From sequence record EU863409: a stretch of DNA of 64,000 nt; one strand, written 5' to 3'. Position numbers and translations under genes: made by a program. Shown here piece by piece: positions 1 through 16,984 of this stretch. Within the stretch, counting starts at the first letter, position 1. Every line of letters starts with the position of its first letter. Origin of the DNA: Escherichia phage JS10. Below the pieces are notes generated by a model. It was not told the origin of the DNA and made no database searches. It worked only from the letters and a program-made list of their open reading frames with translations.

Positions 1-777
<777 letters not shown>

Positions 778-806
778 ACAATAAAGCATAACCAAGAGGA
801 TTCAAA

Positions 807-2789
807 ATGGCTTTATTATCACCGGGCATTGAGCTCAAAGAAACGTCCGTACAGAGTACTGTCGTTCGTAACGCAACGGGTCGTGCAGCGCTGGTTGGTA
901 AATTCCAGTGGGGCCCTGCTTTCCAGGTAACTCAGATTACCAATGAAGTTGAACTGGTTGATTTGTTTGGAGGTCCTAATAACGAAGTAGCAGATTACTT
1001 TATGTCTGGTATGAACTTCCTCCAGTATGGTAATGACCTTCGTACAGTTCGTGTCGTTAGTCGCGAATTTGCTAAAAACGCATCTCCTATCGCTGGTAAT
1101 ATTGAAACCACTATTACTACGGCTGGTTCCAACTATGCTGTAGGCGATAAAATTAATATTAAATATAACCAAACTGTAGTCGAATCTGAAGGTCGTGTGA
1201 CTTCTGTAGATACAGACGGTAAAATTCTTTCTGTGTTTATTCCGTCAGCAAAAATTATTGCTTACGCACGTTCTTTAAACCAGTATCCTACCCTAGGCCC
1301 GGCTTGGACTGCTGAAGTTACTTCTGCCTCTTCGGGTGTTTCTGGTACTATTACCGTAGGTAAAATTGTTACGGATTCTGGTATTCTTTTGACCGAAGCC
1401 GAGAATAGTGAAGAAGCTATTACTTCTCTTGAATTCCAAGCGGCCCTTAAGAAATTTGCTATGCCAGGCGTAGTGGCCCTTTATCCTGGTGAAATTGGTT
1501 CTACTCTGGAAGTAGAAATCGTTTCTAAAGCAGCTTATGAAGCTGGTTCTTCTAAAATGTTGGATGTTTATCCTGGCGGCGGTACCCGTGCTTCTATTGC
1601 CAAGGCAGTATTTAATTACGGACCTCAAACAGATGACCAATATGCTATTATCGTTCGTCGTGATGGTGCTATCGTAGAATCCGTCGTACTTTCTACCAAA
1701 GAAGGTGAAAAAGACGTTTACGGTAATAACATTTATCTTGACGATTATTTCGCTAAAGGTACTTCTAATTACATCTATGCTACCTCGTTAAACTGGCCGA
1801 AAGGATTTAGCGGTATCATTAATCTGTCTGGTGGTATTTCCGCTAACGATAAAGTTACTGCAGGTGATTTGATGCAGGGTTGGGATTTGTTTGCTGACCG
1901 TGAAGCACTCCATATTAACCTGCTTATTGCTGGTGCTGTTGCTGGTGAAGGCGATGAAGTGGCTTCTACTGTTCAGAAACACGTTGTGAGTATTGCTGAT
2001 GAACGTCAGGATTGCTTAGCATTTATTTCTCCTCCTAAAGGTCTGTTGGTTAACGTTCCACTGACTCGTGCAGTAGATAACCTTATCGACTGGCGTACCG
2101 GTGCAGGTACTTTCGATGCCAACAACATGAACATCAGTACCACTTATGCCGCTATTGATGGTAACTATAAATATCAATACGACAAATATAACGACGTAAA
2201 CCGTTGGGTACCACTGGCTGCCGATTTGGCTGGTTTGTGTGCACGTACTGATGATGTGTCTCAGCCTTGGATGTCTCCTGCCGGTTATAACCGTGGTCAG
2301 ATTCTTAACGTTCTGAAATTGGCAATTGAACCACGTCAAGCACAACGTGACCGCATGTACCAGGAAGCTATTAACCCAGTTGTTGGTTTTGCTGGTGGTG
2401 ATGGTTTCGTATTGTTTGGTGATAAGACTGCAACTAAAGTTCCATCTCCGATGGACCACATTAACGTTCGCCGTCTGTTCAACATGCTTAAGAAAAATAT
2501 CGGTGATGCCTCTAAATATAAACTGTTTGAATTGAACGATAACTTCACTCGTTCAAGCTTCCGTATGGAAGTTTCTCAGTACTTAGACGGTATTAAGGCA
2601 CTTGGTGGGATTTATGAAGGACGTGTGGTTTGTGATACTACAGTGAACACCCCTGCGGTTATCGACCGTAATGAGTTTATTGCTAATATCTATGTTAAAC
2701 CTGCTCGTTCTATTAACTACATCACGTTGAACTTCGTTGCAACGAGCACTGGTGCTGATTTTGATGAATTGATTGGACCTTTAGTATAA
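807..2789 (+). CDS. 18: tail sheath protein gp18
   Basis: 660 aa (T4 gp18 about 659 aa); gene order 17-18-19; RBS AAGAGGA upstream. Confidence 0.9.
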   Translation: MALLSPGIELKETSVQSTVVRNATGRAALVGKFQWGPAFQVTQITNEVELVDLFGGPNNEVADYFMSGMNFLQYGNDLRTVRVVSREFAKNASPIAGNIETTITTAGSNYAVGDKINIKYNQTVVESEGRVTSVDTDGKILSVFIPSAKIIAYARSLNQYPTLGPAWTAEVTSASSGVSGTITVGKIVTDSGILLTEAENSEEAITSLEFQAALKKFAMPGVVALYPGEIGSTLEVEIVSKAAYEAGSSKMLDVYPGGGTRASIAKAVFNYGPQTDDQYAIIVRRDGAIVESVVLSTKEGEKDVYGNNIYLDDYFAKGTSNYIYATSLNWPKGFSGIINLSGGISANDKVTAGDLMQGWDLFADREALHINLLIAGAVAGEGDEVASTVQKHVVSIADERQDCLAFISPPKGLLVNVPLTRAVDNLIDWRTGAGTFDANNMNISTTYAAIDGNYKYQYDKYNDVNRWVPLAADLAGLCARTDDVSQPWMSPAGYNRGQILNVLKLAIEPRQAQRDRMYQEAINPVVGFAGGDGFVLFGDKTATKVPSPMDHINVRRLFNMLKKNIGDASKYKLFELNDNFTRSSFRMEVSQYLDGIKALGGIYEGRVVCDTTVNTPAVIDRNEFIANIYVKPARSINYITLNFVATSTGADFDELIGPLV

Positions 2790-2914
2790 TCTATTATCCC
2801 AGGCTGTAATATAAAGAACCTAAAACCATTATACCATGTGTTTGGTTACAGCGTACATCACGTAGAATTGCGCCTGGGAGTGATTAACTATAAGGAATAT
2901 GATTTATCAACTGT

Positions 2915-2922
2915 TATAAATA
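2915..2922 (+). promoter_or_regulatory. late promoter box TATAAATA for gene 19
   Basis: exact TATAAATA upstream of gene 19. Confidence 0.5.
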
Positions 2923-2974
2923 AATTAATCAGAACGTTCCTGGTGTGGCCAGGAACTGACTTATGAGGCATCCC

Positions 2975-3466
2975 ATGGAGTTGACAGATATCACTCGTGC
3001 GTTTGAGTCAGGTGACTTTGCACGCCCTAACCTTTTCGAAGTGGAAATTCCATTTCTTGGTAAAAACTTTAGCTTTAAATGTAAAGCAGCACCTATGCCG
3101 GCAGGCATTGTAGAAAAAGTACCGGTTGGCTACATGAACCGTAAAATTAACGTAGCTGGCGACCGTACGTTTGATGATTGGACCATTACCATTTATAACG
3201 ATGACGCCCATGACACCCGTCAGGCAATTGTTGATTGGCAAAACCTCTGCCATGGTATGACCAATGAAATTACAGGTGCAGCACCTGCAGAATATAAGAA
3301 ACAAGCAGTTGTTCGTCAGTTCCATCGTGACGGTAAAACTGTGACTAAAGAAGTTACAATTTATGGCTTATGGCCTACTAACGTTGGTGAAGTCCAGATG
3401 GATTGGGATTCTAACAACGAAGTTGAAACGTTTGAAAGTACGTTCGCTATCGATTGGTGGGAATGA
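2975..3466 (+). CDS. 19: tail tube protein gp19
   Basis: ORF 2963..3466; second ATG (2975) has a GAGG RBS and gives 163 aa; sequence recalls T4 gp19 (TRAFESGDFARPNLF..., C-terminal WPTNVGE...DWDSNNE). Confidence 0.9.
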   Translation: MELTDITRAFESGDFARPNLFEVEIPFLGKNFSFKCKAAPMPAGIVEKVPVGYMNRKINVAGDRTFDDWTITIYNDDAHDTRQAIVDWQNLCHGMTNEITGAAPAEYKKQAVVRQFHRDGKTVTKEVTIYGLWPTNVGEVQMDWDSNNEVETFESTFAIDWWE

Positions 3467-3467
3467 G

Positions 3468-3475
3468 TATAAATA
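3468..3475 (+). promoter_or_regulatory. late promoter box TATAAATA for gene 20
   Basis: exact TATAAATA; followed by hairpin AGGAGC-TTCG-GCTCCT (3485..3500) before the gene 20 ATG. Confidence 0.5.
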
Positions 3476-3523
3476 GAATTATAAAGGAGCTTCGGCTCCT
3501 TATCCCATTCATCGGAGACTCTA

Positions 3524-5101
3524 ATGGCAAACTTTAATACAATATTAAGTTTTCTTAAGCCATGGGCTAATGAAGACGAAAAAGAATATAAACAACAATT
3601 AAATAACAATTTAGAGTCTGTCACTGCACCTAAGCTTGATGATGGCGCTCGCGAAATTGAAACCCAAGAGCAAAATATTCCTTATAACGCTCTTATGCAA
3701 CAAATGTTTGGTAGTAATGAGCCTGAAGTTAAAAACACCAGGGAACTCATTGATACCTACCGTAATTTGATGAACAACTATGAAGTCGATAACGCAGTTC
3801 AAGAAATTGTGTCTGACGCTATTGTCTACGAGGATGATAAAGAAGTAGTTGCATTAAATTTAGACGGGACAGATTTCAGTCAATCAATTAAAGATAAAAT
3901 TTTGGCTGAATTTAGTGAAGTTTTGAATCTTTTAAATTTCCAACGTAAAGGCACCGACCATTTCCAACGTTGGTATGTAGACTCGAGAATATTCTTTCAT
4001 AAAATTATAAACCCTAAAAAAATGAAAGATGGCGTACAAGAGCTTCGACGCTTAGACCCGCGCCAAGTCCAATATATTCGTGAAATTGTTACACGTATGG
4101 AAGATGGTGTTAAAATTGTAGATGGGTACCGCGAGTTTTTCGTTTACGATACTGGTCATGAAAGTTATTGTGCTGATGGACGCATTTATTCAGCTGGGAC
4201 TAAAGTTAAAATTCCTCGTGCTGCTGTAGTTTATGCACATTCTGGGTTATTGGATTGTTGTGGTAAAAACATCATTGGCTATTTGCAACGTGCTATTAAG
4301 CCTGCAAACCAGCTTAAATTGATGGAAGATGCAATGGTCATCTATCGTATTACCCGTGCTCCTGACCGTCGTGTATTTTATATCGATACAGGAAATATGC
4401 CTTCTCGTAAGGCTGCAGCACAAATGCAACATATCATGAACACGATGAAAAACCGTGTGGTATATGATGCTTCGACCGGTAAAATTAAAAACCAGCAACA
4501 TAATATGTCAATGACCGAAGACTATTGGTTGCAACGTCGAGACGGTAAAGCGGTAACAGAAGTTGATACCATGCCTGGTGCCACAGGTATGAGTGATATG
4601 GATGACGTTCTTTATTTCCGCACAGCACTTTATCGTGCGCTGCGTATCCCAGAGTCACGTATCCCTAGTGAATCCAATTCCGGTGTTATGTTTGATGCTG
4701 GTACGGCTATAACTCGTGATGAGTTGAAATTTGCTAAATGGATTCGACAGCTCCAAAATAAATTTGAAGAAATTTTCTTAGACCCATTAAAAACAAACCT
4801 CATTCTTAAAAAGATTATTACAGAAGATGAGTGGGAAAGAGAAATAAATAATATTAAAGTTACGTTCAACCGTGATAGCTATTTCAGTGAAATGAAAGAT
4901 GCGGAAATCATGGAACGCAGAATCAATATGCTAACGATGGCTGAACCATTTATTGGTAAGTATATTTCACATCAAACGGCTATGAAAGATTTCCTTCAGA
5001 TGACTGACGAAGAAATTAATCAAGAAGCTAAGCAAATTGAAGAAGAGTCTAAAGAGGCTCGTTTCCAAAACCCAGATGAAGAAGAAGAAGAGGATTTCTA
5101 A
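3524..5101 (+). CDS. 20: portal vertex protein gp20
   Basis: 525 aa, position between 19 and 67; acidic C-terminus ending EEEEEDF. Confidence 0.9.
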
Positions 5102-5376
5102 TGGAAGATTTAATCGAAGCTATTAAATCAAACGACCTCGTAGCAGTTCGTAAAGCAGCAGGCCCGCTTATCGAATCTCGAGTAGCCGCTTTGATTGAAG
5201 CCCGTAAAGCAGAAATTGCTCGCTCCGTTATGATTGAAGGCGAAGAAGCCGATAAAGATGACGAAGACGAAGATAAAGACGAAAAATCCGATAAAGCAGA
5301 TAAGAAAGACAAAAAAGAATCTGACGATGCGGATGAAGGTGATGACGACGATGATGACGACGAGGACGACGAATAA
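5101..5376 (+). CDS. 67: prohead core protein gp67 (polyacidic C-terminus)
   Basis: 91 aa, start overlaps gene 20 stop (TAATG); D/E-rich tail; position as in T4. Confidence 0.6.
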
Positions 5377-5804
5377 TGTTCCTTATCCCTGATGATTACG
5401 AATTAACTCTAGAAAGCGTAGAGGCCAAAATTCCAGAAGCACAGGGACGTTTTGCTACTCTTTCTGAAGCCCTCGAGAAAAGCGATATAAATAATCTTGT
5501 AGAGAACATGATTGCTGATGGTGATATCGATACAGCTATTGCCATTGCCTCTTTGAATGAAAATATGGCTCTTAACGAATTTATCGTTAAGCATGTCTCT
5601 TCTAAAGGTGAGCTTACTCGTACTAAAGATATTAAAACCCGTCAACGCAACGCTTATCAAACGACTGGGTTGTCTAAAGCAAAACGCCGTCAGATTGCTC
5701 GCAAAGCGTCTAAAACCAAACGTGCTAACCCGTCTACTCAAGTACGTGCTGAACGTAAGCGTAAGAAAGCTCGTTCTAAACGTAAAGCCTTTGGACTTAA
5801 CTAA
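5376..5804 (+). CDS. 68: prohead core protein gp68
   Basis: 142 aa (T4 gp68 about 141 aa); basic C-terminus; position between 67 and 21. Confidence 0.6.
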
Positions 5805-6439
5805 TGAAACCTGAATTGCTCATCGAACATTGGGGACAACCAGGTGAAATTATCGATGGGGTTCCGATGTTGGAATCTCATGATGGAAAAGATTCTGGAC
5901 TTGCCCCGGGCCTTTATATAGAAGGCATATTCATGCAAGCCGAAGTGGTTAACCGTAATAAACGCCTTTATCCAAAACCTATTTTGGAAAAAGCTGTTGC
6001 TGATTATATGGCAGAACAGGTTGCTACTAAACAAGCTTTAGGAGAATTAAATCATCCGCCTCGTGCTAACGTCGACCCTATGCAAGCCGCTATTATTATT
6101 GAAGATATGTGGTGGAAAGGTAATGACGTTTATGGACGTGCTCGTATTATTGAAGGCGACCATGGTCCTGGTGATAAACTAGCTGCTAATATTAGAGCCG
6201 GTTGGGTGCCTGGTGTTAGTTCTCGTGGTCTAGGTTCTTTAACCGAAACCAATAAAGGATATAAGCGTGTAAACGAAGGTTATAAATTAACCGTCGGTGT
6301 TGATGCAGTATGGGGTCCATCTGCTCCTGATGCTTATGTAACTCCTAAACAAATTACAGAATCACAAACGGTAGATACCGATACCAGTGCCGATGACGCC
6401 TTTATGGCTCTCGCAGAGGCCATGAAAAAAGCGTTATAA
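5804..6439 (+). CDS. 21: prohead core scaffold protease gp21
   Basis: 211 aa; N-terminus LLIEHWGQPGEIIDGVPMLESHDGKD matches T4 gp21. Confidence 0.9.
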   Translation: MKPELLIEHWGQPGEIIDGVPMLESHDGKDSGLAPGLYIEGIFMQAEVVNRNKRLYPKPILEKAVADYMAEQVATKQALGELNHPPRANVDPMQAAIIIEDMWWKGNDVYGRARIIEGDHGPGDKLAANIRAGWVPGVSSRGLGSLTETNKGYKRVNEGYKLTVGVDAVWGPSAPDAYVTPKQITESQTVDTDTSADDAFMALAEAMKKAL

Positions 6440-6442
6440 ATA
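6435..6442 (+). promoter_or_regulatory. late promoter box TATAAATA for gene 22
   Basis: exact TATAAATA about 28 bp upstream of the gene 22 ATG. Confidence 0.5.
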
Positions 6443-6469
6443 TTATTATCTAAACAACAGGACTACAAA

Positions 6470-7285
6470 ATGCTTAAAGAACAACTGATTGCCGAAGCAC
6501 AGAATATTGATGCTTCCGTTGCTCTTGACAGTATTTTCGAATCAGTTAATATTTCTCCGGAAGCAAAAGAAACTTTCGGCACTGTATTCGAAGCTACCGT
6601 CAAGCAACACGCCGTTAAACTGGCTGAGTCTCATATCGCTAAAATCGCTGAAAAAGCGGAAGAAGAAGTTGAGAAAAATAAAGAAGAAGCTGAAGAAAAA
6701 GCTGATAAGAAAATCCAAGAAGCTGCCGGTCGTTTCCTTGACCACGTCGCTAAAGAATGGATGGCTGAAAACCAGCTGGCTGTTGATAAAGGTATTAAAG
6801 CCGAACTGTTCGAATCCATGTTGATGGGTATGAAAGAACTGTTTGTTGAACACAATGTGGTTGTTCCAGAAGAAGCAGTGGATGTTGTTGCTGAAATGGA
6901 AGAAGAACTCCAAGAGCAGAAAGATGAAACCGCTCGTCTGTTCGAAGAAGTTGGTAAGCGTGACGCATATATTAATTACGTACAGCGTGAAGTTGCGTTG
7001 ACTGAAGCAACTAAAGACCTGACTGAATCTCAGAAAGAAAAAGTTAGTTCTCTGGTAGAAGGCATGGATTATTCCGATGCATTTGGTAAAAAAATTGGCG
7101 CTATCGTTGAAATGGTTAAAGGCCAGACTGACGTTGAAAAACCAATCACCGAAGCCGCTATAAATAAAACTGAAGACGATGCTGCAGCACTGAATTATAT
7201 TTCGGAAGCAGTTGAAGAAAAAGGCACTAAGCCTACCCTGTCCTTCGCGGACCTGTCTGCAATCGCAGCATCTCGAATTTCTTAA
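6470..7285 (+). CDS. 22: prohead core scaffold protein gp22
   Basis: 271 aa, E/K-rich coiled-coil-like composition, position between 21 and 23. Confidence 0.85.
   Translation: MLKEQLIAEAQNIDASVALDSIFESVNISPEAKETFGTVFEATVKQHAVKLAESHIAKIAEKAEEEVEKNKEEAEEKADKKIQEAAGRFLDHVAKEWMAENQLAVDKGIKAELFESMLMGMKELFVEHNVVVPEEAVDVVAEMEEELQEQKDETARLFEEVGKRDAYINYVQREVALTEATKDLTESQKEKVSSLVEGMDYSDAFGKKIGAIVEMVKGQTDVEKPITEAAINKTEDDAAALNYISEAVEEKGTKPTLSFADLSAIAASRIS
7159..7166 (+). promoter_or_regulatory. candidate late promoter box TATAAATA inside the 3' end of gene 22, upstream of gene 23
   Basis: exact TATAAATA about 140 bp upstream of the gene 23 ATG. Confidence 0.3.
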
Positions 7286-7306
7286 TTTAATAAGGTTATA
7301 CAACAC

Positions 7307-8866
7307 ATGAAAAAGAATGCATTAGTTCAAAAATGGTCCGCTCTGCTGGAAAACGAAGCTCTTCCTGAAATCGTTGGTGCTTCTAAACAAGCTATCATCG
7401 CTAAAATTTTCGAAAACCAGGAACAAGACATCCTGACTGCCCCGGAATACCGTGACGAAAAAATCTCTGAAGCATTTGGTTCTTTCCTGACCGAAGCTGA
7501 AATCGGTGGTGACCACGGTTATGATGCTACCAATATCGCAGCTGGCCAGACCTCTGGTGCTGTAACTCAGATTGGGCCGGCAGTAATGGGTATGGTTCGT
7601 CGTGCTATTCCTCATCTGATTGCTTTTGATATTTGTGGTGTTCAGCCTCTGAATAACCCTACCGGCCAGGTATTTGCACTGCGTGCAGTATACGGTAAAG
7701 ACCCTATCGCTGCTGGCGCTAAAGAAGCTTTCCACCCGATGTATGCTCCGAATGCTATGTTCTCTGGTCAGGGCGCTGCTCAGACTTTTGAAGCACTGGC
7801 TGCAGGTAAAGTTCTGGAAGTTGGTAAAATTTATTCTCACTTCTTCGAAGCTACCGGTGCTGCACACTTCCAGGCTGTTGAAGCCGTAACCGTTGATGCT
7901 GCTGCTACTGATGCCGCTAAACTGGATGTTGCCGTAACCGCTCTGTTGGAAGCTGGTCAGCTGGCTGAATTGGCTGAAGGTATGGCTACTTCTATCGCTG
8001 AACTTCAGGAAGGCTTTAACGGTTCTCAGGATAACCCGTGGAACGAAATGGGCTTCCGTATCGATAAACAAGTTATCGAAGCTAAATCCCGTCAGCTGAA
8101 AGCAAGCTACTCCATCGAACTGGCACAGGACCTTCGTGCAGTACACGGTATGGATGCAGATGCTGAACTGTCCGGTATCCTTGCTACCGAAATTATGCTC
8201 GAAATCAACCGTGAAGTTATCGATTGGATTAACTACTCTGCACAGGTTGGTAAATCTGGTATGACCAACACCGTTGGCGCTAAAGCTGGTGTGTTTGACT
8301 TCCAGGACCCGATTGATATCCGTGGTGCTCGTTGGGCCGGTGAGAGCTTTAAAGCCCTTCTGTTCCAGATTGATAAAGAAGCAGCCGAAATCGCTCGTCA
8401 GACCGGTCGTGGTGCTGGTAACTTCATCATCGCTTCCCGTAACGTAGTTAACGTACTGGCTGCAGTTGATACTTCTGTAAGTTATGCAGCTCAAGGTCTG
8501 GGTCAAGGTTTCAACGTTGACACCACTAAAGCAGTATTTGCCGGTGTTCTTGGTGGTAAATATCGCGTTTACATCGACCAGTATGCCCGTGCTGATTACT
8601 TCACCATCGGTTATAAAGGTTCCAACGAAATGGACGCAGGTATCTACTACGCTCCTTACGTTGCACTTACCCCACTGCGCGGTTCCGATCCGAAGAACTT
8701 CCAGCCGGTAATGGGCTTCAAAACTCGTTACGGTATCGGTATTAACCCGTTCGCTGACCCGTCTGCACAGGCTCCTACCAAACGTATTCAGAGCGGTATG
8801 CCTGACATCGTTAACAGCCTCGGTCTGAATGGTTACTTCCGTCGCGTTTATGTTAAAGGTATCTAA
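7307..8866 (+). CDS. 23: major capsid protein gp23
   Basis: 519 aa; long stretches match T4 gp23 as recalled (QAIIAKIFENQE, GSFLTEAEIGGDHGY, YAPYVALTPLRGSDPKNFQPVMGFKTRYGIGINPFA, YFRRVYVKGI). Confidence 0.97.
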   Translation: MKKNALVQKWSALLENEALPEIVGASKQAIIAKIFENQEQDILTAPEYRDEKISEAFGSFLTEAEIGGDHGYDATNIAAGQTSGAVTQIGPAVMGMVRRAIPHLIAFDICGVQPLNNPTGQVFALRAVYGKDPIAAGAKEAFHPMYAPNAMFSGQGAAQTFEALAAGKVLEVGKIYSHFFEATGAAHFQAVEAVTVDAAATDAAKLDVAVTALLEAGQLAELAEGMATSIAELQEGFNGSQDNPWNEMGFRIDKQVIEAKSRQLKASYSIELAQDLRAVHGMDADAELSGILATEIMLEINREVIDWINYSAQVGKSGMTNTVGAKAGVFDFQDPIDIRGARWAGESFKALLFQIDKEAAEIARQTGRGAGNFIIASRNVVNVLAAVDTSVSYAAQGLGQGFNVDTTKAVFAGVLGGKYRVYIDQYARADYFTIGYKGSNEMDAGIYYAPYVALTPLRGSDPKNFQPVMGFKTRYGIGINPFADPSAQAPTKRIQSGMPDIVNSLGLNGYFRRVYVKGI

Positions 8867-8880
8867 TACCTAACCTTATT

Positions 8881-8902
8881 ATGGGAGACTTCGGTCTCCC
8901 AT
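8881..8902. terminator. hairpin GGGAGAC-TTCG-GTCTCCC between gene 23 and a convergent small ORF
   Basis: perfect 7-9 bp GC-rich stem, TTCG loop, T-rich tract after it on the plus strand. Confidence 0.6.
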
Positions 8903-8915
8903 TCTTGTTTCTGTA

Positions 8916-9182
8916 CTATGCAATCTTAACTCGACGGTTGATGATATCACGGAAGTCAATACGATTTTCTTGGATTTTCAGCCAGTTACCAGATTTGTCT
9001 TTGGTGTGGGTAGAGTATTCACCGTTCCACCAGAAGTCGGTTTCATAAGCCAGAGCTTCGTATTTCTTAACCAATGCATTAACTGCATTACCGTTAGGAT
9101 TGGTACCAAATTTTTCTACCAGAGCTTTGATGTCTTTGTCAAGGTTAGAAAGCGTGGTACGGATAAAGTTTAATTTGTTCAT
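8916..9182 (-). CDS. hypothetical 88-aa early protein in the 23/24 intergenic slot
   Basis: ORF 8916..9197; internal ATG at 9182 preceded by AGGAGA RBS and an early-promoter cassette. Confidence 0.5.
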   Translation of the reverse strand: MNKLNFIRTTLSNLDKDIKALVEKFGTNPNGNAVNALVKKYEALAYETDFWWNGEYSTHTKDKSGNWLKIQENRIDFRDIINRRVKIA

Positions 9183-9192
9183 TTTTAATCTC

Positions 9193-9241
9193 CTCATGTT
9201 TTGATAGGTCTATAGTAACACGTGGGAACCTTGCTGTAAAC
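9193..9241 (-). promoter_or_regulatory. early promoter cassette copy 1 (GTTTACA-N17-TACTATAGACCTATCAA...ATGAGGAG)
   Basis: read on the minus strand; drives the 88-aa ORF. Confidence 0.55.
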
Positions 9242-9247
9242 AACTTT

Positions 9248-9255
9248 TATAAATA
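9248..9255 (+). promoter_or_regulatory. late promoter box TATAAATA for gene 24
   Basis: exact TATAAATA about 29 bp upstream of the gene 24 ATG. Confidence 0.55.
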
Positions 9256-9283
9256 AACATATACCCTCAATAAGGAAAGCGCA

Positions 9284-10567
9284 ATGGCAAAGATTAACGA
9301 ATTACTGCGCGAGTCAACAACTACTACCAGCAACTCATTGGGTCGCCCTAATCTTGTTGCTTTGACCCGTGCTACCACTAAACTAATTTATCGCGATATC
9401 ATCGCTGAACAACGTACTAGTCAGCCTATTGCTGCATTGTATGGTGTCAAATATCTTACCCCTGATAATGAATTCAGTTTCCAAACTGGTGCTGTTTATG
9501 GTGGTGAAGTTGGTTCTAAAGACCGTGAAACTATCCCGGAACTCACAGATAAAGCCCAGGCGATTGCCAAGGGTGACTACTTTAAGTATCAGAATGTGGT
9601 TTATAAGGCTCTTCAAGCAAGCCCACTCGCATCCACTAGCGCTACAGGATTGGCCGATGCTCTTCAAGAAGGTTTGGTGTCATTAACATGTCGTCTGGTT
9701 CCTGATGCAGCCCATACCACTAAATTCGAAGCGAGTAATGTAGAAATCTCTGATGCTGTATTCCAGGTTAATAAATGGAATGCTCCTGTTAAGACCCGTA
9801 AATTGAAGACTGCTTTGACTGTAGAATTGGCACAGGATATGGAATCAAATGGCTTCGACGCCCCTGCATTCTTAGAAGACCTCCTGGCTACAGTAATGGC
9901 AGATGAAATTAATAAAGACGTTCTGCAATCTCTGATAACCGTATCTAAACGCTATAAAGTTACCGGTGTATCTGATAATGGCATCATCGATTTGACTTAT
10001 GATAGTGCTCCGGAATCTGCCCGTAAACTTTATGAAATTGTCTGTGAGATGAATTCTGAAATCCAGAAAACTACTTCTTATTCTGGTACGTTTGTTGTGG
10101 CTTCAAGTCGTGTGGCTGCAATGCTTGCAGGTTCTGGCTGGTTAAAACATAGACCTGAAGATAATAATTGGCTCCCGGAAACTGCCTATGGTTATTTGTT
10201 GAATGGATTACCACTGTTCTGTGACGTTAACAGCCCATTGGATTATGTTATCGTAGGTGTTAAAGAGAACTATGGTGGTAATGAAGTTGTCGGTTCTATT
10301 TTCTATGCCCCATATACAGAAGGCCTGGATTTAGACGACCCAGAACACGTTGGTGCTTATAAGGTTATTGTCGACCCGGATTCATTACAGCCTTCTATTT
10401 CTCTGATGGTTCGTTATGCACTTTCGGCTAACCCATACACCGTAGCTAAAGACGACAAAGAAGCTCGTATTATCGACGCAACCAATATGGATTTAATGGC
10501 GGGCCAGAGTAATATGTCTTATCTGCTTGGTGTTAAACTTCCAGCAATTATTTACGAGGCTGATTAA
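9284..10567 (+). CDS. 24: capsid vertex protein gp24 (copy 1)
   Basis: 427 aa (same length as T4 gp24); gp23-like fold signatures (ELAQD, YYAPY); position after 23. Confidence 0.9.
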   Translation: MAKINELLRESTTTTSNSLGRPNLVALTRATTKLIYRDIIAEQRTSQPIAALYGVKYLTPDNEFSFQTGAVYGGEVGSKDRETIPELTDKAQAIAKGDYFKYQNVVYKALQASPLASTSATGLADALQEGLVSLTCRLVPDAAHTTKFEASNVEISDAVFQVNKWNAPVKTRKLKTALTVELAQDMESNGFDAPAFLEDLLATVMADEINKDVLQSLITVSKRYKVTGVSDNGIIDLTYDSAPESARKLYEIVCEMNSEIQKTTSYSGTFVVASSRVAAMLAGSGWLKHRPEDNNWLPETAYGYLLNGLPLFCDVNSPLDYVIVGVKENYGGNEVVGSIFYAPYTEGLDLDDPEHVGAYKVIVDPDSLQPSISLMVRYALSANPYTVAKDDKEARIIDATNMDLMAGQSNMSYLLGVKLPAIIYEAD

Positions 10568-11850
10568 TGTCTAAGATTATAGACCTAATTAAAGAATCCA
10601 CATTGACGGCTGCCAACTCGGTTGGCCGTCCTGCTCTTCTTTCATACACCCAAGCAACTAATAAACGAATCTTTAAAGCCCTAGTTGCTGAACAAAAAAC
10701 AAGCCAACCTGTTGCCGCTCTGTACGGGGTTCGTGTACTTAATCCTGACGACAAAATGACTTATCTTGGTGGCGCTACATTTGCAGGCCAGATTGGTATG
10801 TCGGAACGTGAAAATATTCCTGAATTTACCGATTCGTCTACAGCTTATGCAGCCGGCGATATGTTCCAGTTTGAAAGTGTAGTGTTTAAAGTTCTAGAAG
10901 CATCTCCTTTCGCCGGAACCACAGAAACCGACCTCGGTGAAGTTATTTCTGAAGCAGTGGCCGCTGGGCATATTCGTATGGTATCAGATGCTGCTATTAC
11001 TTCTAAATTTGAACAAGGCCACCCTGAAATTGCTGAAGCAGGCTTCCGTATTGACAAATGGCAATCTGAAGTTAAATCACGTAAACTGAAAACTTCATTG
11101 ACAGTCGAATTGGCCCAAGACCTAGAATCAAACGGGTTTAATGCTCCTAATTTCGTTGAAAATCTGCTAGGCATTCAAATGGCAGAAGAAATTAATAAGG
11201 ACGTATTACAGTCATTAATTACGGTGAGTTCTCGTTTTAAAGTCCAAGGTGTTTCTGAAAAGGGCGTATTAGACCTTACCAACCCACGTTACGATAATGC
11301 CCAGGACCGTGCTCGTACATTATATTATTACATGTGTGAGATGAACTCTGCCGTCCAACGTCAAACTTCTTTCGCCGGGACTTATGCAGTAGCTAGTTCT
11401 CGTTGTGCTGCTATTCTCGCCGCTTCCGGTTGGGTTGAGAAAAAGGAAGACCAAGACGAATTGGCTTATGGTGTATTAAAGAATGGTCTGCCTCTTTATG
11501 CCGATATGAATAGTCCATGTGATTATGTTATTGTTGGTGTAAATGCTCAGATGGGTGAAGGACAGACGGTCGCATCTTTATATTATGCGCCTTATACGGA
11601 AGGTTTGGATGTGGTTGATGAAGAAGGTGATACTTCAGTAGGTGAATTTAAGGTTATTGTTGACCCAGAAAGCTTACAACCTACAGTAGCATTGCTTGCT
11701 CGTTATGCATTGACTGCAAACCCTTATACCGTCGCTAAGGACGATAAAGAAGCCCGCATTATTGATGGCTCTGATATGGACAAAATGGCTAACCAAAGCC
11801 AGTTGAGTTCTTATCTTGGTGTAAAACTTCCTCCATTGGATAAAAACTAA
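10567..11850 (+). CDS. 24: capsid vertex protein gp24 paralogue (copy 2)
   Basis: 427 aa, collinear with copy 1 (TVELAQDLESNGF, DVLQSLITVS, YTVAKDDKEARIID); start overlaps copy 1 stop (TAATG). Confidence 0.85.
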   Translation: MSKIIDLIKESTLTAANSVGRPALLSYTQATNKRIFKALVAEQKTSQPVAALYGVRVLNPDDKMTYLGGATFAGQIGMSERENIPEFTDSSTAYAAGDMFQFESVVFKVLEASPFAGTTETDLGEVISEAVAAGHIRMVSDAAITSKFEQGHPEIAEAGFRIDKWQSEVKSRKLKTSLTVELAQDLESNGFNAPNFVENLLGIQMAEEINKDVLQSLITVSSRFKVQGVSEKGVLDLTNPRYDNAQDRARTLYYYMCEMNSAVQRQTSFAGTYAVASSRCAAILAASGWVEKKEDQDELAYGVLKNGLPLYADMNSPCDYVIVGVNAQMGEGQTVASLYYAPYTEGLDVVDEEGDTSVGEFKVIVDPESLQPTVALLARYALTANPYTVAKDDKEARIIDGSDMDKMANQSQLSSYLGVKLPPLDKN

Positions 11851-11872
11851 AAAGGGACCTCACGGTCCCTTT
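11851..11872. terminator. bidirectional hairpin AAAGGGACC-TCAC-GGTCCCTTT between convergent gene 24 copy 2 and rnlB
   Basis: perfect 9-bp stem, flanked by A/T runs on both strands. Confidence 0.6.
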
Positions 11873-11877
11873 ACTGT

Positions 11878-12906
11878 TTATTTGGATACTAGTTCAATCC
11901 ATACAGCTCGTAGCGTATCTTTAACGCACTCAACGAGCTGCTTTTTAACTTCAACAGGGTTTTCTGCATCGGTTAATTCTAATTCTTCACGGGCTGCCTC
12001 TTCCAAAATATCTTGGACCGTCAAGCCCATTACCTTTCCAAAATCTTTAGGTGTTACTTCACCAATCTTACTGATAACGTTATTGATACGGTTAACTGTC
12101 ACATAATCTGTGAATTGCCACATCAAGTCCATATCGTCTTGGGACAATACTACTGCAGCCTTAATAGGCTTATCAGATTTTTTCTTCTCGCTGAATTTAG
12201 AGTTCTTACATTTAATCGCTACACGATTTCCATTAGGAAGCCAGATTGGAACATCAGGTTTCAGTACAAAGCCTTCAGCCGTAAATACTTTACCTTCGAC
12301 CTTAGGAATAAAATCGGTTGAGTTAGCAATGGTTAAACCTGCATTATCCACTGCAAAATTGTAATCTGGGATAACAGAATCAAAATCATTCGGCAGTTTA
12401 ATAAGGTCTTCAAAGCTACCTGTGGCTAAGCACGGAGCAACCTTAAACTTATGGATAATACAGAAAGCTTCCATAAGGGTATCAGTTAAAACGGATTCGG
12501 TGCCATCTTCTTTAGTAACACGGATATCAAATACATAAAAGTCTTTATCGCCGTAATCCACATTCTTCTGGATACCCGTACCAGCGAACTCGCCATAAAT
12601 TTGGTACGACTGATAATTAATAGATTCGATTAGATGTTGAACAGATTTAATAGAATCAGCATAGTTCTTAAGTACAATTTCATAGCCATAGAAATCTTCG
12701 GCCGGGAGAATTGGGCCAGTGCGCTTGGCGCACGTGACTGCGTCACGTTCTATGATTAAACTAAAGTTGGTTCCATGAATCTTCTCACGTGCTACCCATT
12801 CACCACCAGTCAAACCATGGGTACGGAGTTTTTCGATAAACTTACTGTTGTAATGGTTTTCCAGACTGCTATATTTCTTGAACATATTATTTGCTTCCAT
12901 AATCAA
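11878..12906 (-). CDS. rnlB: RNA ligase 2 (RnlB)
   Basis: 342 aa; nucleotidyltransferase motif I EKIHGTN; position between 24 and hoc as in T4. Confidence 0.85.
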
Positions 12907-13255
12907 TTTTAACTAATTTACCTTTAAGGTAACCATAATTTGAAGGTTTACAATCAGACATATACATGCTTTCTACCAGAGTGTGGTGCCTAGCATGGTG
13001 TATTTCTGTTTTCCACAACCCTATATTAGTAACTTCTTTGGCCCTTGGCATAACTATAACAAGTCCTAACCAAGATTTCCATATAACAGGACACAAATAC
13101 GGGTCCTTCAATGATGAGAATTCATGTTCTGTTATATTGCAATAGAGTCCAGTTAAAAACAGTTTCCAACTATAGAAGCTTGGTATCTTAATGGCGTATC
13201 GTTTCGTCAGGAAGACCTGCCGGGTTGCACCATTTCTTTTTCTGATAAATGGCAT
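12887..13255 (-). CDS. hypothetical protein with protein-kinase-like motif spacing
   Basis: 122 aa; AIK ... HH ... DCKPSNYG ... KIDYG resemble kinase VAIK / catalytic-loop / DFG motifs; overlaps rnlB start by 20 bp. Confidence 0.4.
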
Positions 13256-13370: not shown

Positions 13371-13580
13371 TTACTTTGAACTAGAACGCGCTTTGCGCCG
13401 AACCTTGTTGTTCAATCTTTTACGATAAACAACCTTTTCTTTTGATTTAAATTTCTCTTTGGCTTGTTCTACATCGACCCAAGCTTTAGCCATGTCCTTA
13501 GCAGTACCACCTAATTTTTTAGCAATTTCTATAAAATTTAGTCCAGATTCGTGTAAAAAATGTACTTTAACCTTATCCAT
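13371..13580 (-). CDS. hypothetical small basic protein, possible helix-turn-helix
   Basis: ORF 13371..13619, probable start at MDKVKV (13580); GLNFIEIAKKLGGTAKDMAKAW segment; basic C-terminus. Confidence 0.4.
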   Translation of the reverse strand: MDKVKVHFLHESGLNFIEIAKKLGGTAKDMAKAWVDVEQAKEKFKSKEKVVYRKRLNNKVRRKARSSSK

Positions 13581-13609
13581 AACAATTCTCTTGTTGAGTT
13601 GGTAAAGCC

Positions 13610-13639
13610 ATCTTAACATAGGATTTTTAACTTGTAAAC
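13610..13639 (-). promoter_or_regulatory. candidate sigma70-type early promoter (GTTTACA-N17-TAAGAT) for the small HTH-like ORF
   Basis: -35 GTTTACA and a weak -10 read on the minus strand. Confidence 0.3.
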
Positions 13640-13650
13640 AGGAGTATTAA

Positions 13651-14658
13651 ATGGCAGATTCTATTTTTGGTCATGACGGTCGAGGGACCTTTTCCGGTAT
13701 TGCTTTAAAGGAATCGGATACTGTTATCCCTTTTGAAAAAATTCTTACTAAAGAAAGTCTTATAAACCCGGCAAGATTGGTAGGGAGTAATTCGTATGGC
13801 TTAGGCTTGGTTAGTAAATCCGGAAGAGCTGAAGTTCTGGCCCATTTGGGGATAACCGAAGAAATGTTATCCCCTGGTATCCCTGGCCCTAAAGGTGAAA
13901 GCATTGTAGGACCGAGAGGCCCGGCTGGTCCTGTAGGCCCTGTGGGTCTAAATTGGAAAGGAACATGGAGTGCTGCAACAGCCTATGTTAAGGATGATGC
14001 AGTAGGGTACAATGGGGCTTCTTATTTTTGCGTTCAGGATTCTACCGGTAATAATCCTGCTGAAGAAAACAGCCTTTACTGGGCCTTATTGGCTTCTCAG
14101 GGTGCACAAGGCGAACAGGGTATCCCGGGTAAAGATGGTGAGCAGGGTCCGCAAGGTGTTCAAGGTCCTCCTGGGGTGGATGGGATTGATGGACTTGACG
14201 GAGCTACTGGCCCTCTAGGTCCTCAGGGTCCTCAAGGCGAACCTGGTAAAGATGGCACAGATTTGTTTTCATTCCATAAGTATACCAACGTTGCTGCTGG
14301 GTACGGTGAAATAAAAATACCTGGGGTCGCCAATACGGTTCTTAGAGTTAGATTGGTTAACAACCAAATAGAATACAGCATTTTAAGTAAAGGTGGGACT
14401 ACCCGATATTGTGATTATCACTTTGTTGCTCCTAGTGTTTCGGGTGGAACGGTTACTACCGGTGGCGGAACTAAGACTTTGTCTCCTACAGGCTCATTTG
14501 TTATAGTAAGTGCGGCATATAACGGGCTACGTCCTATTAATATAACCTTAAAGGAATGGGGTTCTAAAACAATTTCAGAAATAACAGTATTTCAACACGG
14601 GCGCAGTGTAGATTCTAATAAACCTATATTGGTTAAAATGGTTAGTTTCCCTTATTAA
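13651..14658 (+). CDS. collagen-like (Gly-X-Y repeat) protein with non-collagen N- and C-terminal domains
   Basis: 335 aa; GIPGPKGESIVGPRGPAGPVGPVG and an uninterrupted run of about 18 G-X-Y triplets (GAQGEQGIPGKDGEQGPQGVQGPPGVDGIDGLDGATGPLGPQGPQGEPGKDG); AGGAG RBS. Confidence 0.8.
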   Translation: MADSIFGHDGRGTFSGIALKESDTVIPFEKILTKESLINPARLVGSNSYGLGLVSKSGRAEVLAHLGITEEMLSPGIPGPKGESIVGPRGPAGPVGPVGLNWKGTWSAATAYVKDDAVGYNGASYFCVQDSTGNNPAEENSLYWALLASQGAQGEQGIPGKDGEQGPQGVQGPPGVDGIDGLDGATGPLGPQGPQGEPGKDGTDLFSFHKYTNVAAGYGEIKIPGVANTVLRVRLVNNQIEYSILSKGGTTRYCDYHFVAPSVSGGTVTTGGGTKTLSPTGSFVIVSAAYNGLRPINITLKEWGSKTISEITVFQHGRSVDSNKPILVKMVSFPY

Positions 14659-14669
14659 TTGGAGGTAGC

Positions 14670-15530
14670 ATGTCTATACAAGTAAATGGACCTCATTATG
14701 AATTGGTTGGGAGAACGGTAACTCTTAGGGCTGTTTTATCTGAATCTTTAACTGACGCTGATATAAAATGGTACAAAAACGGTGTAAACGTTCCATTATT
14801 AGATAAAGAAGACCCGATGTATCTAAATCTTTGGGATGTAGGGTTTCCGGCTTCTGGGACCTATTATGCAATAGCAACCGATAAACTTACACAAGAGGTT
14901 TTTCAAAGCGACGATTTTGTTTTAGAAATAGGAATGGAGCCTAGAGATATAGTTATTTCCGTAGAAAATTTAGATGCTATCGTAAAGGCGGCCATAGGTC
15001 AAAAAGTTTCTTTACAACCTTTAATTTCTATGGGTGCCACGCCCTGGGCTGAAGTCGAGTGTGAATGGTGGAAATACGATAAAATGGTTTCAAATGTAAA
15101 GGATTTGGACGTTGATATAAATCCTTCTATGTACGGGACATATTCACTTAATGTTTCTGCTACCGCTGAAGGAGCCTATAATCCGTATCATGATATAGTT
15201 ACGGTAGATATCATGCCTTTAGATGGTATTTTACCAGAACCTGAAGTGTGTCCTTTTATATACTCGAATGATTTAAATCAATATTTGTCTTATCCTGGTG
15301 GAAGAAATAGGGCTCATATGTGGATAGGTTGGTGGGTATTGGATGAGATAAAAGGAGCCCTTGCTAAAGACCAGGATTGGGCTATCAATATAGAAGATAG
15401 CAATTTTAGGTATAAGTGTGAGCTCATGAAAGTGGCAGAACTTTTGTCACGATATCCTGATGTAGAAATACAGGAATCAAGAAATGGATACATTTTGAAT
15501 AGGAAGCACCTGACATTAAATGTCATATAA
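14670..15530 (+). CDS. Hoc-like paralogue: two Ig-like domains plus Hoc-type C-terminal capsid-binding domain
   Basis: 286 aa; GGAGG RBS 12 bp after the collagen-like gene; C-terminus (WIGWWVLDEI...YPDVEIQESRNGYIL) parallels the C-terminus of the 469-aa Hoc. Confidence 0.7.
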   Translation: MSIQVNGPHYELVGRTVTLRAVLSESLTDADIKWYKNGVNVPLLDKEDPMYLNLWDVGFPASGTYYAIATDKLTQEVFQSDDFVLEIGMEPRDIVISVENLDAIVKAAIGQKVSLQPLISMGATPWAEVECEWWKYDKMVSNVKDLDVDINPSMYGTYSLNVSATAEGAYNPYHDIVTVDIMPLDGILPEPEVCPFIYSNDLNQYLSYPGGRNRAHMWIGWWVLDEIKGALAKDQDWAINIEDSNFRYKCELMKVAELLSRYPDVEIQESRNGYILNRKHLTLNVI

Positions 15531-15574: not shown

Positions 15575-16984
15575 TTAGTAAAAATAAATTATACCTGTGT
15601 CAAGAGCCGAACGATGGATAATTCTTCCATTTCGTGATTCTTGTACATCAACCTCTGGATAATCCGCAACCATTTTTTGAAGAGTGTAGCGATGGAGATA
15701 ATAATTGCTATCTGGGTCATCAGTTTTCCAATCTTTACCTTCAAGTGTCATTTTCTGGATTTCATCCATAACCCACCAACCGGCCCAAATATACGCTGAA
15801 TTACGAACCGGCAGCGGATGGACGTAAGGTAGTTCGCCTTCCGGTTCAGGAGCAACTTTAGGCGTAATTGTTACATTACCAGATTTTTTGACAGTCACAG
15901 GATTATAGTCGGTAGCCGAAACCACAACAGAAACTTCAATAACCTGTGAACCTTCAGCACTTGTATCGACTACTAAAGTATCTGTGGTGCCGGCAACAGG
16001 TGAACCATCTTTCTTCCAAGAATATGCAAAAGTAGCACCAGCAGGCGCACCTGCTACGGTAGCTTTAAAAGAAGCTGGAGTTCCTTCCGGAGTATTAATA
16101 GAGGCCGGCGCTAAAGTAACAGAAACACCTGTCATGGTCTTTTTAGTAATTGTTACACTTCCGGTTTTGGTAACGGTTAAATCGTTATAATCCGTACCTT
16201 TTAGGACTACCGAAACTTCAATAGTGTAAGAACCTACTGTAGATGTATCAACAGCAAGGGTATTACTGCTTTCGCCCGGAATAATAGAACCATTTTTCTT
16301 CCAAGAATAAGTTGCATTTACGCCGGAAGGAGCGCCAACTACATCCGCTTTAAACTGTGCAGATGAGCCTTTCTCTGTACTAATTGAGGCTGGTGTTAAA
16401 GTAACGGAAGCACCTGATATAGTTTTCTTAACAAAAGTTACCGCAATACCTTTAGTAGCTGTAGCCGGGTCATATTCAGGGGCGGTAACAGTAACTTCAC
16501 AGTTCAACGTGTAATTTGCTTCTGCTGCTTCAGTTACAGTAATAGTTTTACCAGTTTGACCTGAAATTACAGTTGTATTACGTTTCCAAACATAAGCCAT
16601 TGTAGCGCCAGCAGGGACACCCGATACGTTAGCAGTAACAACTTGGGATTGACCGATTTCTTTAGAAACGGAAGTAGGGTCTAAGGTCAAAGAAAGAGCC
16701 CCAATGGTCTTATTAGCTACAGTAACTTCAAAAGTTTTTTCAGCTACCTCAGGTTCGCCTTCGGTCGGAGTAGAAGTTGCTACTACTTTTAAAACTTTCT
16801 TACCAGCTGGAGCCGCACCGGTATATCTCAAAACATTGGTGGCCTCTGGATTAGAAGCACCGTCAATGGTCCATACATATGTAACGGTTCCTTCTACAGC
16901 TGCACCTGTTGCGGTAGCAGTGTAGTTGGCGCTTTCGCCTATTTTAATAGACGCAGCGCCGGCTATACTTACAGTAAAAGCCAT
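15575..16984 (-). CDS. hoc: Hoc outer capsid decoration protein, four tandem Ig-like domains plus C-terminal capsid-binding domain
   Basis: 469 aa; four repeats of roughly 90 aa with the pattern TYxWKKNG...Y; C-terminal WAGWWVMDEI...YPEVDVQESRNGRII. Confidence 0.85.
   Translation of the reverse strand: MAFTVSIAGAASIKIGESANYTATATGAAVEGTVTYVWTIDGASNPEATNVLRYTGAAPAGKKVLKVVATSTPTEGEPEVAEKTFEVTVANKTIGALSLTLDPTSVSKEIGQSQVVTANVSGVPAGATMAYVWKRNTTVISGQTGKTITVTEAAEANYTLNCEVTVTAPEYDPATATKGIAVTFVKKTISGASVTLTPASISTEKGSSAQFKADVVGAPSGVNATYSWKKNGSIIPGESSNTLAVDTSTVGSYTIEVSVVLKGTDYNDLTVTKTGSVTITKKTMTGVSVTLAPASINTPEGTPASFKATVAGAPAGATFAYSWKKDGSPVAGTTDTLVVDTSAEGSQVIEVSVVVSATDYNPVTVKKSGNVTITPKVAPEPEGELPYVHPLPVRNSAYIWAGWWVMDEIQKMTLEGKDWKTDDPDSNYYLHRYTLQKMVADYPEVDVQESRNGRIIHRSALDTGIIYFY

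Follow-up and report, generated by a model that had tools for sequence, protein, structure and literature searches.

In phage T4 one gene, gene 24, provides the vertex protein gp24 that fills all 11 gp24 vertices of the head, whereas the phage studied here keeps two gp24 paralogues side by side. Our main study sequence is a 64,000-nucleotide window of Escherichia phage JS10 (EU863409; coordinates are window positions throughout), in which the two genes lie on the plus strand at 9284–10567 (copy A) and 10567–11850 (copy B). As an annotation the gp24 pair is not new: it goes back at least to the JS98 record, and GenBank carries it as 24a/24b in JS98, 24(1)/24(2) in VR7, head vertex protein I/II in Salmonella phage CGG4-1, and 'capsid vertex protein I/II' in further records. 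The JS98 pair, like those of VR7 and CGG4-1, represents the same locus as in the window (gene 23, a small reverse open reading frame (ORF), 24A, 24B, and a convergent rnlB, with abutting genes), and the JS98 proteins are 94% (A) and 91% (B) identical to ours, with no essential difference. In the searchable full-text literature we found no paper discussing or testing a second gp24, the likely primary papers lying outside that scope, and the F48 paper is silent on them.

T4 gp24 (1YUE, 5VF3, 7VS5) resembles the window pair in family, length, fold, gene position, predicted late expression, and N-terminal cleavage motif, and a search with A and B returned T4 gp24 as the only gp24 among PDB structures, with none from a phage that has two gp24 genes. 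Two further systems offer partial likenesses. The duplication that separated gp24 from gp23 also produced a tandem shell-protein duplicate that was kept through lattice-position specialisation (PMC9958956, PMC3012670); that split is much deeper (~20–27% identity) and its division of labour has been demonstrated, whereas A and B are 57% identical and their division of labour is inferred. The second Hoc-like decoration proteins of Muldoon and PG7 (Fokine et al. 2023, PMC10385173) are likewise paralogous capsid-surface proteins within one T4-like genome, and the window itself contains two Hoc-like genes; however, Hoc is dispensable and binds the centres of hexamers, whereas gp24 is an essential subunit of the lattice. 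For the locus described here we propose, at a probability of roughly 0.72, that A and B are an ancient, stably inherited tandem, characteristic of the JS98-like Tevenvirinae, that encodes two non-redundant vertex proteins, possibly for different vertex classes of the prolate head.

The original prediction, made from the sequence of the window, described two consecutive, collinear gp24 paralogues of 427 amino acids, and this description holds. BLASTP aligns A and B over their full length with 57% identity and 77% positives (501 bits, E = 0), far beyond chance, at a nucleotide identity of ~60%. The motifs named as shared, TVELAQD[ML]ESNGF, DVLQSLITVS, and YTVAKDDKEARIID, are all present in both copies; the TAATG stop/start overlap is real, with TAA at 10565–10567 sharing one base with ATG at 10567–10569; and the T4 record contains a single gene 24, as had been stated. 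Both proteins match PF07068 (Gp23/Gp24) in Pfam at 329.7 bits (A) and 326.2 bits (B) against a cut-off of 24.4 (both ~1e-97), and over residues 1–424 each is alignable end to end with 1YUE, the structure of T4 gp24 (E = 2.9e-199 for A, 5.4e-152 for B), whereas gp23 chains are matched in the same structure comparison at merely ~1e-10 to 1e-11. In the multiple alignment, identity to T4 gp24 is 70% for A and 58% for B, levels that leave no doubt about the fold, and each copy is ~27% identical to the gp23 of the window across ~250–285 amino acids. The architecture is of the gp24 type in both products, which are ~427 amino acids long, collinear with T4 gp24, and devoid of the 65-residue N-terminal propeptide of gp23, and so is the gene position, in the order 20-67-68-21-22-23-(ORF)-24A-24B-rnlB with a predicted late promoter upstream. 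A classifies as a T4-type gp24, and B belongs to a separate, old gp24 lineage.

The tandem is widespread and its two members are found together. Across positions 7300–12000 the window is 98.3% identical to Esco_phi_B-01, 94–97% identical to NC-G, UP19, Bp7, QL01, and WG01, and 89.5% identical to JS98, identities that place the phage in Dhakavirus (JS98/Bp7-like coliphages), within the Bp7/NC-G/Esco_phi_B-01 subgroup. The survey of T4-like genomes that the original prediction called for found the same tandem in more than 100 independently sequenced genomes. A tblastn search with B through 50,697 phage records yielded gp24 homologues in 1451 of them, with B orthologues (at least 77% identity, E ≤ 1e-180) in 112 of the 1451; the fetched representatives of these belong to Dhakavirus, Gaprivervirus, Gelderlandvirus, Kanagawavirus, and Marfavirus. 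When at least 80% identity is required, A orthologues occur in 90 records and B orthologues also in 90, counts that are consistent with strict co-occurrence of the two. B-type proteins at 66–70% identity are represented by six matches in a collection of 5.8 billion proteins, from Erwinia phage FBB1 and from SRA-derived contigs. In all four of the lineages inspected, this divergent B-type gene stands directly after an A-type gp24, with gp23 ahead wherever the contig extends that far. B adjoins an A-type gene at every locus inspected, and no stand-alone B-type gp24 was found in the 50,697 phage records or in the four divergent contigs inspected among the six matches.

Beside the hypotheses of mixed pentamers and of a specialised unique vertex, the original prediction offered a recent duplication under diversification, and both halves of this last explanation fail. 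Nei-Gojobori estimates for A against B give a saturated synonymous divergence (pS) of 0.74 and a nonsynonymous divergence (dN) of 0.37; a scan of pS in sliding 30-codon windows revealed no low-pS patch between the copies. Saturated pS without any low-pS window rules out a recent duplication, and the missing low-divergence patch likewise led us to reject A/B gene conversion. Within single genomes A and B are 52–57% identical in all nine lineages compared. In neighbour-joining trees (200 bootstraps; all trees reported here are distance trees), the two copies fall into separate clades spanning at least five genera, with 100% support for the B clade and 99% for the JS98-type A clade. The branching order inside the two clades is congruent, namely Marfa, (CIP9, (STP4-a, (JS98, window))), and A-A identities track B-B identities pair by pair (r = 0.96); by this measure A and B co-diverge as a unit. 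As for diversification, the ratio of nonsynonymous to synonymous substitution (dN/dS) between window and JS98 orthologues is 0.062 (A) and 0.058 (B), to be compared with 0.043 between T4 and Mosigvirus gp24. In deep comparisons B is the more conserved copy (67–71% identity vs 62–64% for A), and column conservation across the HK97-like body and C-terminus is 0.85 in both. These values indicate that both copies are under strong purifying selection and that neither is decaying, which implies that both are functional and non-redundant.

The trees also bear on where the second copy came from. In them, the B clade splits off below every single-copy gp24 of the Tevenvirinae, and B retains outgroup states at 25L, 26S, 32N, 56R, and 267F, positions at which the non-B Tevenvirinae share a derived residue. 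The FBB1-like A copies fall outside the group formed by T4 and its relatives, 04086, and JS98-type A (96% support), and the FBB1-like B copies are the sister of the JS98-type B clade. Single-copy T4 thus sits between two-copy lineages, which is most simply read as a duplication predating the T4/JS98 split and a subsequent loss of B in the T4, Mosigvirus, Moonvirus, and Karamvirus lines. The single gene 24 of T4 may accordingly be a derived state, reached through loss of a second copy.

What sets B apart from other gp24 proteins is concentrated near its N-terminus. We defined a position as B-diagnostic when it is invariant in nine B sequences and the fifteen non-B Tevenvirinae gp24s all carry a different, otherwise conserved residue. 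There are 15 such positions, and 8 of the 15 lie within T4 residues 25–72 (Fisher p = 3.6e-4). The positions that tell A from B include, in T4 numbering, 34 L/R, 57 Y/V, 72 Y/F, 244 P/Q, 359 A/E, and 415 L/Y. The block LVALTRATTKLIY, near-invariant in non-B gp24, reads LLS[YF]T[QK]ATNKRIF in B, and the window copy of B carries the N-arm signature of its clade as LLSYTQATNKRIF. The prohead-protease motif [L/I]-x-E|S at residues 8–11 is retained in all nine B sequences and in all A sequences, the N-termini in the window being MAKINELLRE|STTT for A, which keeps LxE|S and is near-identical to that of T4, and MSKIIDLIKE|STLT for B. The motif lines up with the point where mature T4 gp24* (5VF3) begins, at residue 11 (PMC9958956). 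Inside the T4 prohead the N-terminal region of gp24* is disordered; on expansion it relocates to the outer surface and forms an N-arm there that binds neighbouring subunits, and the attachment of gp24 to the prohead vertices is thought to activate the gp21 protease (PMC9958956).

The anatomy of the locus suggests that the two genes are expressed together. Upstream, gene 23 (7307–8866, plus strand) encodes the 519-amino-acid major capsid protein (PF07068, 3.9e-122; major head protein in relatives), an older paralogue of both gp24 copies, and a terminator-like hairpin with a T-run on the same strand (8881–8902; 9-bp stem with 5 GC pairs) separates it from the gp24 genes. A T4-type late promoter box, TATAAATA, lies at 9248–9255 on the plus strand, 29 nucleotides upstream of the ATG of A; no second box with zero or one mismatch occurs after gene 23 and ahead of the B start codon. 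Reading the sequence further, we find a Shine-Dalgarno-like AAGGA for A at 9272–9276 and a Shine-Dalgarno GAGG for B at 10556–10559, within the 3' end of A, followed by the TAATG overlap at 10565–10569 (all plus strand). A bidirectional terminator-like hairpin at 11851–11872, detected on both strands, directly follows the stop of B and is common to the convergent rnlB (11878–12906, minus strand; Pfam RNA_ligase and T4_Rnl2_C). The overlap points to translational coupling of A and B, and the single late box, the coupling, and the flanking terminators together lead us to predict a two-gene late operon with coupled translation. An own late promoter for B was considered and rejected, as A contains no TATAAATA with at most one mismatch; a one-mismatch variant, TATGAATA, occurs at 11505, within B and downstream of its start. 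The genes abut or overlap in the same way in STP4-a, CIP9, Marfa, VR7, CGG4-1, and the metagenomic contigs. In the window as a whole TATAAATA occurs 17 times against 6.8 expected, a number that none of the shuffles reached, and nine plus-strand copies within 268–9255 stand ahead of head and neck genes.

Under the reading we favour, A and B would both be late, HK97-fold vertex subunits of the virion, with their first 10 residues predicted to be removed by the gp21 prohead protease. The 5-fold symmetry of the prolate T4 head divides its 11 gp24 vertices into one apical vertex and two rings of five. Given these three vertex classes, A pentamers and B pentamers may serve different subsets of the 11 non-portal vertices, a sub-functionalisation in which the N-arm would read the local environment of each vertex class; alternatively, A and B may act at different stages of prohead completion. 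Long retention, copy-specific invariant signatures, and strict co-occurrence argue that the two proteins are not redundant. A stronger form of this proposal, which we put forward tentatively as a possibility, is that the shell consists of three HK97-fold proteins, gp23 hexamers together with position-specific A and B pentons whose distinct N-arms would respond to differing hexamer surroundings, and that T4 gp24 represents a secondary simplification; B could then occupy, for example, the single apical vertex opposite the portal, or one ring of five. As a sequence feature the pair is ordinary, having been annotated since JS98 and being present in more than 100 genomes, and its interest lies in a T4-sized head with two essential-looking, strongly constrained vertex proteins, whereas T4 needs one. 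Should the pentons prove position-specific, the pair would be a natural case of vertex specialisation in a prolate capsid and would bear on how T4-like heads mark the boundary between cap and midsection and fix head length. There is also a practical side, in that Dhakaviruses and Gelderlandviruses serve as therapeutic phages and as T4-modelled display platforms.

Several points weigh against this proposal. That A and B occupy different vertex classes is purely inferential. The trees were built by neighbour-joining, and some of their deep nodes have 60–76% support. Informative parsimony sites favour a basal position of B by 12 to 2, which is near the homoplasy expectation for a longer branch: the homoplasy rate on the A branch, 4/14, predicts ~9 such sites for B, so that the 12-to-2 signal is not decisive by itself, and we abandoned it as firm proof of an outside origin. 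Furthermore, Escherichia phage 04086 combines a Dhakavirus-like backbone with a single divergent gp24 and no B. Provided that this record is sound, one gp24 is enough for a lattice of the Dhakavirus type, which is a weak counter-indication.

Of the competing explanations, the one that survives best concerns the origin of B only and is compatible with the functional proposal, namely that B is a xenologue acquired from a more distant T4-like phage and moved as a cassette. We regard this as doubtful while granting it a real chance. The position of the B clade below all single-copy Tevenvirinae gp24, together with several states that B has in common with the Krischvirus and Slopekvirus outgroups, speaks in its favour, as do signs that the region recombines. 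The gp23 and gp24 trees disagree: the gp23 of STP4-a is 91% identical to that of Moonvirus Merlin and pairs with it at 100% bootstrap, unlike its gp24A and gp24B, which group with the JS98 and CIP9 copies. This conflict indicates that Tevenvirinae genera have recombined between genes 23 and 24, and we dropped gp23 as a proxy for the species tree because its tree is poorly resolved and incongruent, keeping it solely as a sign of recombination. A swapped segment from gp24 to rnlB in 04086 and a Jiaodavirus gp24 that looks like a mosaic of A-type and B-type would also fit cassette transfer. However, a donor lineage carrying B alone is missing from the 50,697 phage records and from the four inspected of the six 66–70% matches, the excess of sites for a basal B is largely expected from homoplasy on its longer branch, and the placement of the FBB1-like A copies outside T4 and JS98-type A, with their B partners as sister of JS98-type B, fits an old duplication with later losses.

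A second explanation would leave the two proteins interchangeable, mixing freely as heteropentamers or through random vertex occupancy, with the second copy contributing dosage or robustness only. The two are alike in length, fold, and protease motif, share ~57% identity with strongly conserved blocks in the core, and are predicted to be co-transcribed and translationally coupled, by which both would be made together; all of this is compatible with free mixing. We nevertheless consider it unlikely. Redundant copies are normally not kept so long, each copy here has held an invariant signature of its own in five or more genera at a dN/dS of ~0.06, and the count comparison (90 vs 90 records) shows no trace of genomes with a single member. 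Moreover, one gene suffices in T4 and most of its relatives, so dosage is not generally limiting.

A third explanation would keep B out of the finished shell, either through a role confined to the prohead (vertex seeding or capping, or triggering of gp21) or as a decoy or alternative target against host defences that sense capsid proteins. The concentration of B-specific changes in an N-terminal segment that faces the prohead interior before expansion is in line with a prohead role, as is the view that vertex attachment of T4 gp24 triggers protease activation (PMC9958956). Even so, we judge such a role unlikely, in that B is collinear with T4 gp24 over residues 1–424 and its HK97-like body and C-terminus are as conserved as those of A, which meets the need of a lattice subunit and goes beyond that of a decoy; the ORF list of the window shows no defence-related context around B. 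Finally, the two circumstances that the original prediction named as fatal to it, inactivating changes in one copy and an assembly artefact, found no support and have practically no probability left, since both ORFs are intact, full length, and constrained, more than 100 independent genomes as well as metagenomic contigs contain the pair, and ~60% nucleotide identity is too low for a collapsed or duplicated assembly.

Two related loci deserve description in their own right. In Escherichia phage 04086 (OR842557, labelled Dhakavirus; locus 3142–5818), the flanks are 92–95% identical to the window, with 95% nucleotide identity in the gp22-gp23 region, whereas the segment running from the small ORF through gp24 to rnlB has 74–78% identity and contains one A/T4-like gp24 and no B. 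The record has ~680 bp extra after gene 23, and its annotation is sparse, with gp23 annotated short; it is a natural replacement of the segment or else a chimeric assembly. A fusion of A and B was rejected for its gp24, which is A/T4-like throughout in a sliding-window comparison. The single gp24 of Jiaodavirus (Klebsiella phage vB_KpnM_5N, 4001–5281) appears mosaic, as its N-terminal ~110 alignment columns (~70 residues) are A/T4-like (88% vs 51% to B), its middle third is nearer to the B clade (57–77% vs 40–70% to A), and its C-terminus is again A/T4-like. This gene may be a recombinant of A-type and B-type genes.

Further features flank the pair. Between gene 23 and gp24A, an ORF of 93 amino acids (8916–9197, minus strand) has no Pfam match. 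JS98 and VR7 carry a homologue of it (orf173), T4 and CGG4-1 have the homing endonuclease segD at the same slot, UP19 also has a homing endonuclease there, and dhaeg and CLB_P2 appear to lack the ORF (split matches, 94% query coverage). The spacer between genes 23 and 24, compared across these genomes, behaves as a variable insertion site. Beyond rnlB, the window encodes a collagen-repeat protein of 335 amino acids with a weak CBM5/12 match (13651–14658, plus strand), a short Hoc-like protein of 286 amino acids (14670–15530, plus strand), and, convergent with them, Hoc itself, with 469 amino acids and Ig and PKD repeats (15575–16984, minus strand). JS98 lacks the collagen-repeat and short Hoc-like genes at the equivalent locus. 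In the FBB1-like loci, collagen-like (43–48% identity over ~185 amino acids) and short Hoc-like homologues stand directly downstream of gp24B on the same strand (4890–6427 in L014, 5326–6841 in L016, 2676–4506 in L017, and 2634–4140 in L018). These genes may form a head-surface module that travels with the vertex genes in some, though not all, two-copy phages; strict linkage of gp24B to the collagen-like/short Hoc-like pair was ruled out, as JS98 and STP4-a have B without those genes there. Of two small minus-strand ORFs beyond rnlB, the nearer (12887–13255, 122 amino acids) belongs to no Pfam family and lies between rnlB and the other, an ORF of 82 amino acids at 13371–13619 that matches DUF2774 at 5.7e-30.

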